Shown here: in pieces, positions 8,539-64,000 of the stretch
Layout: each line of letters starts with the position of its first letter
Numbering within the stretch: position 1 is the first letter of the stretch
Assembly: GCA_018052455.1 (NCBI GenBank)
Contig: JAGPNE010000004.1
Coordinates: 52,882-116,881, forward strand
Reading direction: 5' to 3'
Length of the DNA: 64,000 bases
From: Candidatus Fermentithermobacillaceae bacterium
GTDB taxonomy: Bacteria > Bacillota > Sulfobacillia > Fermentithermobacillales > Fermentithermobacillaceae
Notes under the pieces: generated by a model
Databases searched by the model: none
Told to the model about the DNA's origin: nothing
What the model saw: the letters and a program-made list of their open reading frames with translations, nothing else
Position numbers and translations under genes: made by a program

Positions 8539-9054
8539 ATGGAGATCAACGTAAGAGGTAAGAACATGAACGTAAGCCCCGCACTTCGGGAATATGCAGA
8601 GAAGAAATTGTCCAAACTGGAGAAATACGTGAGGCAGGATTCTTGTTTGTGCCAGGTGATGTTTTCAACTCAGCGGGGCAAGTATGTGGTTGAAGTTACG
8701 CTACCTCTGAATGGCATGATTTTGAGGGCGGAAGAGTCGGCTCAGGATGCGTTTGCCTCAGTAGATCTGGTTGTGGAGAAACTCGAGAGGCAGCTGGAGA
8801 AATACAAGACGAGACTGCTTAAGCGCGATAAGCAAGAGCAGCGATTGTCAGAGCCTGAGGAAGAACTCGAAACAGGACAGATTGTAAAGGTCAAGAGATT
8901 TGCTATGAAACCTATGATGCCTGAGGAAGCAGTAATGCAAATGGAGCTTCTAGGTCACGATTTCTTTGTTTTTGCAAACGGCGAAACAGGTTTGGTTAAC
9001 GTTATTTACAGACGCAAAGACGGCAACTTCGGTCTGATTGAACCTGAGATTTAG
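8539..9054 (+). CDS. hpf: Ribosome hibernation promoting factor (long HPF, YvyD type)
   Basis: MEINVRGKN...ALREYAEKKL, AEE...DAFASVDLVVEKLERQL.KYK, C-terminal KPM.PEEA..QMELLGHDFFVF. Confidence 0.95.
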   Translation: MEINVRGKNMNVSPALREYAEKKLSKLEKYVRQDSCLCQVMFSTQRGKYVVEVTLPLNGMILRAEESAQDAFASVDLVVEKLERQLEKYKTRLLKRDKQEQRLSEPEEELETGQIVKVKRFAMKPMMPEEAVMQMELLGHDFFVFANGETGLVNVIYRRKDGNFGLIEPEI

Positions 9055-60238: not shown

Positions 60239-63200
60239 ATGAGAACACAACGGGCAAGCAAGACACTGTCTTTGTTTCTGGCATTTTGCGTGGTATTTAC
60301 TATGCTGCCGACTGTGGCTTTTGCCGAAACCGGCGATGTGGATTCCGGTGTGCCTTTAGGCGTGAGCGGCATCATCACCGACTTTGCGCCGCTGGATGAA
60401 GATGTGGCAGAGCAAACGGTGGAAATGGGTACAGCCGAGGATATGCTGAAGCTGCCAAACCAGATGATAGTTACGGAAGAAACCGAAATTACGGCAACGG
60501 ACAGCGATGTCCATAGTACCGGCTCTGTCGCCCGCACTATGGACATCGGCGGGCAAACCGGTGTTGGTCTTGACGCTGATACCAGCGGAACAGGCTGGAC
60601 TTGGACGGCAAGCACCTCCACCCTGACGCTTAACAGCAGTTACCAAGGCGGCTACATAACACTTGAATGTGCCGACACCGATACCATCAATCTGTTATGC
60701 GACGGTGCCGTCACGGTTAACCAAGGTTCTACCTACGCCATCGACTGCTATGGGAGCCTCGTCATCAAAGGTGAAGGCCAGCTTACGCTTAGCGGCGGCA
60801 TAAGAGCCTCTAAAAATATCGTCATCTTGGGTACGATGGGCAATATCAGCGGCGGCATTGACGCCGGCGGCAGTGTTACTATCTCCGGCAGGGTGGGCGA
60901 TATTACGTCCACGATTCACACGATTTACGCAAATGGCGACATTACAATTTCCTCCAACGCCGTTGTGGGCAAGATAGGAGCAGGAGGCACCGGCTCTAGC
61001 AGCAGCACCCATGGCATTTACTCATATGGCGGCGGCGTGGTCATCAACGGCACAACAGGCGATATTTCAGGCACATACTATGGAATTTACGCAAAGGGCG
61101 GCAGTGTTATCATCAACGGCACAACAGGCGCGATTAGCAGTGCACTCGGATCAACGTCAGACAACTCCGGCATTCGCGCAGAAAGCGGCGGCGTTACCAT
61201 TACCGGCGAAACAGGCGCGATCAGCTCCGCGAGTAACTACGGTGTTTACGCGAAAACTGGCGACGTTTTAATCAGCGGCAAAACCGGTGATATCACCGGC
61301 GCGAAAGCCATCGGCATTTTAGCGTTAGCGGGCGGTATTACAATTTCACCTAACGCTGTTGTGGGCAATATCGCCGGCGCTCAAAACAGCATCGACGCAT
61401 ACGGCGACGTCACAATCGGCGGTAAAACCGGCGATATTACAGGCGTCGCAGGCAGCTTATTTGGCGGCGGCATTCGCGCAGGCGGCAGCGTCACAATCAC
61501 AGGAGAAACGGGCGATATTGCCAGCACTAACGCCAGCATCCCGGCAATTGGCGCAGGCGGTGACGTCTCCATCATAGGCAGTGTGGGCAAGATTGCAGTC
61601 ACCGCCTCCAGCGGTGGTGGTGGTCTCGGTATTTACGCTGACGGCGGCATCCACATCATCAATTCTGCCACGGTAAGCAGCTTCAATGGCGCGTTCAATA
61701 AGGCCCCCGCCACTTTACCCTCTTCCTATACAGCCACTTGGAGCAACAACGCGGACGGCTCCGGTGTGTCCACCGGCAGTACCTATACATGGAACGGCAG
61801 CCATAAATACGTAAAAATTGAAAATGGTAGCGGCGGTGGAACATCCGTCCCCACTGTGTCGAGCTTTGTGGCTGGACGCAAGGATGCGGATAGTGTGAGA
61901 TTTTACTTCACGCCCAGCACCACCGGGAAATTTGGATTTCAGATTGAGAAAAAAGAATCACCAGCGCCGACTAATCTTCCGCTGGTCCATGAAATGACTG
62001 CCATAATGGAATTTGGTATCGAGGCAAGAGAGTTTGGCGCCACCGCCACTGATATTCTCGTAATATATCTGCAAACCGAGGACACAGAAGGTGTCAAGAG
62101 CCAGATATACTCCCTTGAAGTCCCGGCATATACACCGCCGACGGATGCTAAAGCGCCAAGCATTAGCGAACAACCGACAAGCGCAACCTATGTGCAAAAC
62201 GAGACGCCCATCAATTTGTTGGTGCTCGCAAACAACACGGATGGCGGCAGCCTATCGTACCAGTGGTACTGTAATACGACAAACAGCACAGTAGGCGGAA
62301 CACCAGTCACCAGCTCGTCTATCAACGGGTGCACGCCATCCACTGCCATGGTCGGCACGACCTATTACTATTGTGTGGTCACAAACACCAACAGCGAAGC
62401 GACCACAAATAAAACCGCCACGGCGACCAGCGATGTAGCGGCGGTAACGGTGAATGCACCGGGCGGCACAACCTCACCCATCGAGATTACCGGTTTTGAA
62501 GCTATTCCCGATGAGGATGTCGGAAAAGCAGGAAGTACAATCTGTGTTAATGTGGCGGAGGTCATTAACCTTCTAAAATCGATCCATCCGTATGCAAGCG
62601 CAATGCACAGCGGCAACCAAACGACCCTTTTCCTTATTACAGGCTGGGAGGACACAGACGGCTATAATCCGAGCAAGGCAGGCAGCTATACCTTCACCGC
62701 TGCCGCTGCCATACTGCCTGGCTTTGCCAATAGTGCCGGTCACAAAGTCACCGTGGAGGTGGCGGTGGCTTCGGCGGATGCCGCAACCATCACCATCACA
62801 AAGCACCCTCAGAATGTAACCGTAACACAGGGCAGCATTAACGGAACCTTGACGGCGGAAGCTGTCGCAAGCAACGGCAAGCCTATCCGCTATCAGTGGC
62901 GTCGCTTTATCGGTGGTATTGGCAGCGATAACACGCAGCCTTTACTCGGCGAAACAAGTAGTACTCTCACCATCCCGGCAGGTCTAACCGCAGGGACTTA
63001 TCAATACCTTTGCGTTTTCAACACAGATGGTACCGATTATGTAGATAGCAATACTGCCATCGTAACCGTAAATCCGCCTTCTAGTGGTGGCAGCAGCGGC
63101 TCCGGCGGTGGAAGATATACACCACCTCCGGCCACCACGCCGCCACAAGGGCCGCCCAACCAGCCTATCACAGCGACGGCACCTGTGACCGCTGCAAGAG

Positions 63201-63823
63201 GCACAAACGGCATAGCCAATGCAAACATCCCCACAAGTGCTATTCCCGATGCCATTACCAGAGCAGAGGCCACCGCAAGAGCACAGGGTAGTTCTGCAAA
63301 CGGCATTTCGATAGAGCTGAATGTCACCATGCCGCAGGGGGCGACTTCCCTGACGGCTGCGATTCCCCAAAGTGCGTTGCAGAGTCTTGTCACAGCAGGG
63401 GTAAACCAGTTTACGGTAAATGGTGCTCCGGTATCTCTCGGCCTCAATCAGAGTGCACTTCAGGCCATTCAAAGTCAGGCCAGTGGCGGTATTACCATCG
63501 GCATGACCCCTGCAACCGGACTTTCCGCATCGGCACAGTCGATGATCGGCAGCCGTCCGGTTTACAACATTACCATCAGCTATACCGACAAGAGTGGTAA
63601 GACGCAGAACATTACCAGTTTCGGAAGCGGCACGGCTACGCTCGCTATCCCTTACACAGCCGGTAGAAATGAAGCCGCCGGCTACTTGTTTGGCGTGTAT
63701 GTGGACGGAAAGGGCAACGCAAGCCGTATCCCCGGCTCGGTGTATGATGCAAATAGCCGAAGCATTCTCATCCCTACCAATCATCTCTCGGTGTACGGTG
63801 TAGGCTACACGATAAAGAAGTAG
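60239..63823 (+). CDS. Large surface protein (Gly-rich beta-helix-like repeats, Ig-like domains), prematurely stopped before its SLH anchor
   Basis: Signal peptide PTVAFA; repeated G.VTI.G..G.I units; ITKHPQ and ISEQP Ig-like starts; TAG stop lies inside a 34-bp insert. Confidence 0.85.
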   Translation: MRTQRASKTLSLFLAFCVVFTMLPTVAFAETGDVDSGVPLGVSGIITDFAPLDEDVAEQTVEMGTAEDMLKLPNQMIVTEETEITATDSDVHSTGSVARTMDIGGQTGVGLDADTSGTGWTWTASTSTLTLNSSYQGGYITLECADTDTINLLCDGAVTVNQGSTYAIDCYGSLVIKGEGQLTLSGGIRASKNIVILGTMGNISGGIDAGGSVTISGRVGDITSTIHTIYANGDITISSNAVVGKIGAGGTGSSSSTHGIYSYGGGVVINGTTGDISGTYYGIYAKGGSVIINGTTGAISSALGSTSDNSGIRAESGGVTITGETGAISSASNYGVYAKTGDVLISGKTGDITGAKAIGILALAGGITISPNAVVGNIAGAQNSIDAYGDVTIGGKTGDITGVAGSLFGGGIRAGGSVTITGETGDIASTNASIPAIGAGGDVSIIGSVGKIAVTASSGGGGLGIYADGGIHIINSATVSSFNGAFNKAPATLPSSYTATWSNNADGSGVSTGSTYTWNGSHKYVKIENGSGGGTSVPTVSSFVAGRKDADSVRFYFTPSTTGKFGFQIEKKESPAPTNLPLVHEMTAIMEFGIEAREFGATATDILVIYLQTEDTEGVKSQIYSLEVPAYTPPTDAKAPSISEQPTSATYVQNETPINLLVLANNTDGGSLSYQWYCNTTNSTVGGTPVTSSSINGCTPSTAMVGTTYYYCVVTNTNSEATTNKTATATSDVAAVTVNAPGGTTSPIEITGFEAIPDEDVGKAGSTICVNVAEVINLLKSIHPYASAMHSGNQTTLFLITGWEDTDGYNPSKAGSYTFTAAAAILPGFANSAGHKVTVEVAVASADAATITITKHPQNVTVTQGSINGTLTAEAVASNGKPIRYQWRRFIGGIGSDNTQPLLGETSSTLTIPAGLTAGTYQYLCVFNTDGTDYVDSNTAIVTVNPPSSGGSSGSGGGRYTPPPATTPPQGPPNQPITATAPVTAARGTNGIANANIPTSAIPDAITRAEATARAQGSSANGISIELNVTMPQGATSLTAAIPQSALQSLVTAGVNQFTVNGAPVSLGLNQSALQAIQSQASGGITIGMTPATGLSASAQSMIGSRPVYNITISYTDKSGKTQNITSFGSGTATLAIPYTAGRNEAAGYLFGVYVDGKGNASRIPGSVYDANSRSILIPTNHLSVYGVGYTIKK

Positions 63824-63881
63824 AACGCACGAGGAAAGCGTCGGCTACCAATCATCTCTCGGTGTACGGTGTAGGCTACAC
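63774..63881 (+). repeat. 37-bp direct repeat flanking a 34-bp insert
   Basis: ctaccaatcatctctcggtgtacggtgtaggctacac identical at 63774-63810 and 63845-63881. Confidence 0.97.
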
Positions 63882-64000
63882 TGCTCCATCTGCCAAGTTT
63901 ACGGATGTTGCTGACCATTGGGCAAAAGAATCCATTGATTATGTAGTCGGCAGAGGGCTTCTCTCCGGCACATCGGAAACCACCTTTGCACCGAACATTG
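63845..64000 (+). pseudogene. Detached SLH-domain coding segment of the 60239 gene (continues past window)
   Basis: Reads TNHLSVYGVGYTAPSAKFTDVADHWAKESIDYVVGRGLLSGTSETTFAPNI. Confidence 0.85.

Follow-up and report, generated by a model that had tools for sequence, protein, structure and literature searches.

How does the gene of a large surface protein come to be cut short, just ahead of the domains that anchor its product to the cell wall, by a unit with the dimensions of a CRISPR repeat, spacer and repeat, and can such an interruption be undone? The question is raised by a locus of a widespread anaerobic-digester bacterium. The window considered here is the whole stretch of 64,000 nucleotides at C7:52882-116881 of a scaffolded draft MAG of 1.54 Mb (30 contigs, 92% complete), and the unit is located close to its right-hand end. 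As will be discussed, the unit is a natural insertion, and its origin is best, if only by a little over an even chance, explained by off-target integration of a spacer by Cas1-Cas2.

The interrupted surface-protein gene

The preliminary description of this DNA had reported an exact 37-bp duplication of coding sequence around a unique 34-bp insert that brings in a TAG stop codon, and the duplicated segment was said to end in the palindrome GTGTAG-G-CTACAC. Coordinates and sequence bear out both statements: the 37-bp direct repeat reads CTACCAATCATCTCTCGGTGTACGGTGTAGGCTACAC and the insert GATAAAGAAGTAGAACGCACGAGGAAAGCGTCGG, arranged as follows.

60239..63823, + strand: truncated surface-protein ORF, identical to P0123
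63774..63810, + strand: copy 1 of the duplicated 37-bp target, encoding (P)TNHLSVYGVGYT
63798..63810, and again 63869-63881, no strand assigned: palindrome GTGTAG-G-CTACAC, the 3' end of each 37-bp copy
63811..63844, + strand: unique 34-bp insert, purine-rich, 50% GC
63821..63823, + strand: TAG stop codon, located within the insert
63845..63881, + strand: copy 2 of the 37-bp segment, in frame +2 relative to copy 1
63862..64000, continuing to C7:117831, + strand: orphaned C-terminal fragment, a 316-aa ORF from the GTG at 63862, equal to P0121/P0122

Since an exact 37-mer would recur 71 bp away with a probability of 4^-37 per site, the second copy is not there by chance. The structure spans 108 bp, of which 71 bp (34 new bases and a 37-base copy of the target) are additional to the uninterrupted gene, and the shift of frame between the copies follows from 71 being 3x23+2. 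When the filled and the empty allele are aligned, both junctions are found to be free of microhomology, with no shared bases. The palindrome is native coding sequence, being present also in the empty allele; in vitro work suggests that a 13-nt palindrome at the border of a target may be relevant. A k-mer scan of the entire 1.54-Mb assembly revealed no second unit of this kind, the repeats found being REP-like elements and one coding repeat.

The insert-derived TAG terminates an ORF of 1194 codons, counted from the ATG at 60239, or of 1208 if the first ATG (60197) is used, so that the product ends in ...VYGVGYTIKK. The truncated protein comprises a Sec-type signal peptide (...TVAFA/ETGD), beta-helix-like repeats, Ig-like modules and a conserved pre-SLH module. 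In the intact protein (P0127) three SLH domains begin at approximately residue 1195 and are followed by choline-binding-type repeats up to residue 1496, whereas the insertion sits at residue 1191, with all the wall-anchor domains downstream of it. Thus, with the signal peptide and the passenger modules retained and the anchors lost, the 1194-aa product should be secreted without becoming attached to the wall. The orphaned fragment carries the three SLH domains and the choline-binding-type wall-binding repeats, but it lacks a signal peptide and no Shine-Dalgarno sequence is visible upstream of its GTG, and it is therefore probably a silent remnant.

The possibility that ribosomes bypass the 71 nt was also considered, given the identical take-off and landing sequences and the stop codon that follows. 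The predicted hairpin is weak and the idea found no support; moreover, the intact allele of sister lineages marks the insert as a mutation rather than a conserved feature, and bypass was rejected on these grounds.

Filled and empty alleles in public assemblies

At least 23 contigs, drawn from ENA (assembled with SPAdes or MEGAHIT), JGI and NCBI assemblies, carry the filled allele, and the repeat-insert-repeat unit is identical in every filled contig whose sequence was read. The empty allele was found in two assemblies, namely L003 (ERZ941568, MEGAHIT k127) and L004 (SRR26984152, a Logan contig). Both are shorter by exactly 71 bp in the alignment and otherwise identical around the site, so that the restoration of the reading frame upon removal of 71 bp, deduced in the preliminary description from the filled sequence, turns out to be realized in nature: the empty allele encodes a 1500-aa protein that reads through ...VYGVGYTAPSAKFTDVADHWAK... 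The same picture emerges from the protein cluster (90%) to which the truncated product belongs: members of 1194 aa, on many contigs, are joined there by C-terminal fragments of 316 aa, on some 40, and by two members of 1500 aa, which correspond to exactly 1191 + 309 residues. No longer allele, with a full element between the 37-bp repeats, was met in any of the retrieved contexts.

That the structure was created by assembly or scaffolding, as had also been suggested, is a reading that can practically be set aside. The window genome is, admittedly, a draft MAG joined by scaffolding; in one public scaffold the copies are separated by 100 N, and a Logan contig built at k=31 ends within the repeat. 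Breaks and gaps of this type are, however, what a genuine 37-bp repeat predicts. The identical structure recurs in the at least 23 contigs from different samples and three assemblers (SPAdes, MEGAHIT k127 and JGI), and the contig ends of the window assembly overlap by 127 bp, which indicates a k of 127, in excess of the 108 bp of the structure. The unit is, in other words, natural.

The intact gene is not restricted to the two empty contigs. In relatives at 85-89% protein identity, and in more distant ones, VYGVGY[T/G/E]APS leads straight into the SLH domain, and the uninterrupted allele, for which relatives had been suggested as the place to look, thus exists both at this distance and in L003 and L004. 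It follows that the empty site is ancestral and the insertion derived. At the DNA level, none of 60 relatives searched gave a match to the locus.

Filled haplotypes differ from the window genome by 0-6 SNPs over 9-13 kb, and the filled clone is therefore nearly clonal across digesters, in datasets from several continents. The empty haplotypes are also close: L003 differs from the window genome by 9 SNPs in 8.6 kb, distributed on both sides of the site, and L004 by 15 SNPs in 6.6 kb. Overall, filled and empty haplotypes of the SLH gene are only 0.1-0.2% apart and, judged by this divergence, the insertion is a very recent, single event. Both alleles occur within one digester study, PRJEB20855, in which L003 is empty and L007 and L228 are filled. 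At a SNP 522 bp from the insertion (C7:116170, T/C), all four combinations with the insertion are encountered: filled with T in the window genome, filled with C in L228, empty with T in L003 and empty with C in L004. Such a four-gamete conflict can arise only if strains have recombined, if the 71 bp have been lost precisely or if a mutation has recurred.

Origin of the insertion

The sizes of the duplicated and inserted segments, which the preliminary description had taken to fit those of CRISPR repeats and spacers, can be compared with the systems of the family. Cas1 is encoded in 16 of 33 genomes of 'Ca. Fermentithermobacillaceae'. The genus-mate UBA3907 (G002, DGFF01) carries an island with cas6, a type III-B cmr module, two CARF genes and then the type I-B genes in the order cas1-cas2-cas4-csa1-cas8b-cas7-cas5-cas3, followed by a leader and an array of up to 27 repeats. 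The repeat, GTTGCAGCGAGGATCCCGATGTAAAGGGAACTGAAAC, is 37 nt long, which is precisely the length of the duplication, the system compared being that of the genus-mate and not the host's own. Among 83 distinct spacers collected from UBA3907-type arrays on eleven contigs, 35 nt is the commonest length (31 spacers) and 34 nt the second commonest (20 of 83, 24%), followed by 36 nt (13), 37 nt (9), 40 nt (5), 39 nt (2) and 38, 33 and 32 nt (1 each). The fit of 37 and 34 bp to repeat and spacer sizes has, thus, been substantiated within the genus. In another family member, G028, a different 37-nt repeat is associated with spacers of 33-36 nt. If five family repeat lengths are allowed for, the chance of matching both the repeat length of the genus and one of its two top spacer lengths is estimated at approximately 1/30 or less, and a fortuitous size match with the genus's own system is unlikely.

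The likeness does not extend to the sequence of the target, which agrees with the UBA3907 repeat, in register, at 11-12 of 37 positions, i.e. at the random level (the genome background being 9.2 +/- 2.7). The G028 repeat scores higher (17/37, with a shared GAGAGnGATTG), and this value is not significant after multiple testing. Unlike the UBA3907 array, with its leader and adjacent cas6, cmr and cas genes, the unit of the window consists of two copies of host coding sequence only, with no leader, and no cas6 or other cas genes are found in the genome; what it shares with that array is the repeat length of 37 nt and an insert length that falls within the spacer range of 34-37 nt. With no leader and no Cas6, and being placed inside an ORF, the unit is not expected to function as a CRISPR array.

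The window genome itself appears to have lost the machinery. In the 92%-complete assembly neither Cas1 (PF01867) nor Cas2 (PF09827) gave a Pfam match, tblastn with the Cas proteins of UBA3907 detected no homologues, and no CRISPR array or repeat remnant was found, contig ends included. In UBA3907 the island is placed between the gene of an S41 peptidase and a glyoxalase/amidohydrolase pair. The orthologous flanks in the window genome are only 1.6 kb apart (C16:428391-431980) and enclose the tail of cmr5 and a decayed cmr6 of 164 aa, which lacks residues 1-45, 92-149 and 233-297 of the 325-aa protein. A relic in this syntenic position implies that the lineage once possessed an orthologous CRISPR-Cas island; with at least four separate deletions visible, cas6, cmr1-4, the CARF genes, all the type I-B genes and the array have evidently been lost by several deletions. 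The identical relic is found, each time in the same context, in 74 blocks of public assemblies, and the contigs that bear it form two strain groups, which are about 0.55% apart, evenly over 12.5 kb. No intact conspecific island was recovered through the closest Cmr6 homologues (at most 80% identical and, therefore, not conspecific) or through the exact glyoxalase neighbour. Since the relic is common to groups about 0.55% apart while filled and empty alleles are separated by 0.1-0.2%, the island was probably gone before the insertion took place; the loss is most probably the older event, in a comparison that spans different loci and assumes limited recombination.

The suggestion of a natural off-target acquisition, as originally put forward, therefore survives in one part and not in the other. 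The dimensions agree with those of a genus-mate, whereas the host, in which an absence of cas1-cas2 had been held to speak against such an origin, is indeed without them as far as its assembly goes.

The source of the 34-mer was sought at several levels. It does not recur in its own genome with up to 3 mismatches allowed, nor was a local or inverted donor found. No match, exact or with up to 3 mismatches, was obtained in GTDB representatives and 210 genomes of the class, and none in phage and plasmid collections or in the IMG/VR viral collection, which was searched with the full 34-mer and two 22-mers. Two scans of JGI metagenomes, in which a flanking 'not-C' base was used to exclude the locus itself, gave no match outside it, and the 34-mer is absent from the 83 spacers of the UBA3907-type arrays. 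The search among genome, phages and plasmids that had been proposed for this insert has, thus, yielded no protospacer. Most natural spacers match nothing known.

Off-target spacer integration is reportedly the origin of what Nivala, Shipman & Church (2018, Nat Microbiol 3:310) described as neo-CRISPR units. To our knowledge, integration by Cas1-Cas2 is the sole mechanism from which foreign DNA of some 34 bp would be expected to lie between precise copies of a target of about 37 bp, without homology at the junctions, and it is the explanation that we favour here, with a confidence only somewhat above even. The integrase that we infer, one with a 37-bp ruler, would have attacked the surface-protein gene once on each strand, at positions 37 bp from one another, one border of the segment abutting the 13-nt palindrome, and a 34-bp prespacer of foreign origin would have been joined at the attacked site. 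Repair of the gaps would then have duplicated the 37-bp target, and the outcome would be the +71-bp frameshift with its immediate TAG, and hence a secreted 1194-aa protein devoid of the three SLH domains and the choline-binding-type repeats, along with an untranslated C-terminal remnant. The lack of microhomology and of a genomic donor fits the chemistry of an integrase and not template switching, and the occurrence of a single unit in the genome is as expected of a rare misfire. With the island of the host probably already decayed, the integrase may have been provided by a mobile element or by a locus within the unassembled 8% of the genome.

Precedents are available from two systems. In E. 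coli, off-target integration by Cas1-Cas2 reportedly duplicates a repeat-length target in vivo (Nivala et al. 2018, as cited in PMC7054753, PMC11788318 and bioRxiv 10.1101/148544), the integrase being over-expressed, the duplication 28 bp and the spacers 33 bp long (PMC7054753, PMC11788318, PMC6698737, bioRxiv 10.1101/148544), and the natural cases of neo-CRISPR units are described as circumstantial only and concern two other species (PMC7054753, PMC11788318, bioRxiv 10.1101/148544). The P. furiosus Cas1-Cas2 integrates off-target in vitro, at sites that have sequence features in common with the repeat (PMC6698737). The unit of the window resembles neo-CRISPR units in its foreign insert of spacer length, the repeat-length duplication of an ordinary site, the clean junctions and its rare and singular occurrence. 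It departs from those of E. coli in being natural, polymorphic in wild populations and gene-truncating, in its type I-B dimensions (37/34) and in belonging to a genome that no longer encodes Cas1-Cas2. With the P. furiosus reaction it shares a non-CRISPR target and, by proposal, a spacing between the two attacks that is set by the enzyme; here, however, the target has no significant similarity to the repeat of the genus. No comparable scar, of 37 bp around an insert of 3x bp, was seen in the 1.38 Mb (81%) that were scanned of the cas-positive UBA3907.

A process that does not involve Cas proteins is the alternative with the greatest remaining weight, and we regard it as possible, though doubtful. 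Repair of a double-strand break with filler DNA could be responsible, as could a polymerase that switched to an ectopic template, or an integrase not yet described, the CRISPR-like dimensions being then coincidental or due to an enzyme with a similar ruler. Such an origin would agree with a genome without cas1 and cas2, whose chromosomal island was lost earlier, with a target unlike any CRISPR repeat tested and with the failure to find a protospacer. On the other hand, template switching and microhomology-mediated repair normally leave a donor and microhomology, and neither is seen, the latter at either junction; we know of no bacterial repair route to a precise 37-bp duplication; and the match to the repeat and spacer lengths of the genus would have to be due to chance, at about 1/30 or less. 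With no donor, microhomology or element ends found, the earlier suggestion that the unit is an excision footprint or a templated insertion likewise finds no support.

That a transposable or integrative element left this footprint, having duplicated its target site and lost all but 34 bp of itself, is highly improbable. Transposition does typically leave foreign DNA between direct duplications, as is observed, but the 34-mer has no terminal inverted repeats, is single-copy in the genome and absent from the 210 genomes of the class, and an allele with the full element was not seen in the retrieved contexts; nor do we know of an IS family with a fixed 37-bp duplication and a 34-bp residue. Even jointly, this reading and that of an artefact retain a very slight chance of being correct.

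Reversion and consequences for the host

Off-target integration by Cas1-Cas2 would account for how the unit arose; whether the unit can be removed again is a separate matter, which applies whatever the origin. Deletion without RecA proceeds readily between identical repeats of 37 bp that lie only 34 bp apart, and precise reversion through the two copies is possible. A stronger proposal, also made in the preliminary description, is that the unit works as a genetic switch, the copies recombining or slipping so that 71 bp are deleted and the anchored protein is restored, with populations alternating between a released and a wall-bound form. The co-occurrence of both alleles in PRJEB20855, and the four combinations of SNP and insertion, which call for more than one change of state or recombination, are in line with it. 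However, the change would be in one direction only, given that the 34 bp cannot be regained; the haplotypes of the two empty alleles differ, with 9 SNPs in one and 15 in the other, private or shared, as would those of lineages that never received the insertion; and the four-gamete pattern is equally well accounted for if coexisting strains have exchanged DNA by homologous recombination. A switch is, therefore, unlikely. As in phase-variable surface genes, direct repeats would allow a precise, frame-restoring deletion and both states are found in natural populations, whereas, unlike in those genes, the change could run in one direction only, no sign of recurrent switching was seen and the repeats stem from a single insertion and not from an evolved repeat tract.

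Off-target integration has been well demonstrated only for the over-expressed Cas1-Cas2 of E. coli. If the favoured origin is correct, the present case would be a new natural example of this kind, complete with an empty-site allele and a consequence at the level of the gene, in which a wall-anchored protein of 1500 aa is predicted to give way to a released form of 1194 aa. What sets it apart is that the host was probably already without its CRISPR-Cas island. That an integration with CRISPR dimensions took place in an already island-less lineage, through the adaptation enzymes of a transient mobile element or an unrecognized enzyme with the same ruler, can be put forward only tentatively. Were it true, surface-protein genes would be exposed to mutation by spacer-type integration in nature even outside CRISPR-bearing cells, and a gene so hit, now holding two 37-bp repeats, would be ready to revert precisely. 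The case also invites the question whether host genes are mutated by adaptation enzymes, even in cells without the system. The proposal lends itself to experiment, as the intact target sequence can be paired with a defined integrase, that of the 37/34 type I-B system of the sister species.

As to the effect on the host, the near-clonal truncated allele in digesters worldwide raises the possibility that cells benefit from shedding the protein, which might, for instance, serve phages as a receptor. The same gene is apparently broken at another place in a related lineage (P0130 and P0002, whose longest contigs have the same length of 69,630 bp), which hints that loss of the surface protein is tolerated.

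Variation in and beside the surface-protein gene

The surface-protein gene truncated by the 34-bp insert and its flanking 37-bp direct repeats seems to have been damaged repeatedly. P0125 (JGI, 1145 aa), the product of a filled allele (i.e. one with the 71-bp insertion), carries an additional 28-residue in-frame deletion (SGTATLAIPYTAGRNEAAGYLFGVYVD...) directly upstream of the insertion (cf. window 63600-63700), and in another lineage, that of P0130 and P0002 (longest contig 69,630 bp for both), the gene appears to be split midway by a frameshift. The beta-helix-like part of the truncated gene also contains a coding repeat with a period of 69 bp (window 61040-61130; C7:113922-114011), encoding ..INGTTGDISG.. 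/ ..INGTTGAISS.., which is ordinary intragenic repetition with no relation to the 34-bp/37-bp insertion.

Approximately 1.2 kb downstream of the insertion structure, four SNPs are clustered in 59 bp (C7:117959-118017). They divide the filled clone into two sub-haplotypes and are common to the empty (insertion-free) L003 allele. The position of the cluster coincides with a contig break of the G000 assembly (C7/C21), which suggests mixed strains or a short recombined segment.

The CRISPR-Cas island relic and other arrays

The relic of the type III-B/I-B CRISPR-Cas island lies outside the window (G000 C16:429005-429782), with a glyoxalase on one side and an S41 peptidase on the other, and consists of the tail of cmr5 and a cmr6 of 164 aa with three deletions, each of which keeps the frame; the open frame may have been retained by chance or by selection. 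An identical cmr5/cmr6 relic is found in 74 blocks of public assemblies. The adjoining S41 peptidase (C16:430133-431980; loci L068-L077) varies between strains in its N-terminal region and at its 3' end, with called products of 562-617 aa and an indel cluster near slice position 8630-8675.

The genus-mate UBA3907 (G002) has a second CRISPR array at a contig end (C131:48-709; L207), with the repeat GTTTTAGCCTACCTATGAGGGATGGAAAC (29-30 nt) and spacers of 33-37 nt; a similar repeat occurs in the family member G019 (L014). The public contig L053 (JAKOTN010000096.1, 1939 bp) consists of nothing but the 37-nt repeat of the UBA3907 type, present 27 times, and its assignment to a MAG labelled Pseudomonadota is almost certainly a binning error.

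A dispersed hairpin repeat

A REP-like hairpin repeat, with the core GAAGCAAAAAGTGCCGTCCCCGC / GGGACGGCACTTT(C/T)TGCTTC, is dispersed in G000 at sites including:

C16:29805-29888, REP-like repeat
C16:16360-16480, REP-like repeat
C20:173273-173401, REP-like repeat
C26:25233-25306, REP-like repeat

Copies frequently form pairs 47-65 bp apart and frequently lie at scaffold gaps. Many G002 contigs carry the repeat as well, and GGGACGGGGGTTTTTGCTTC is a related element in this genus-mate.
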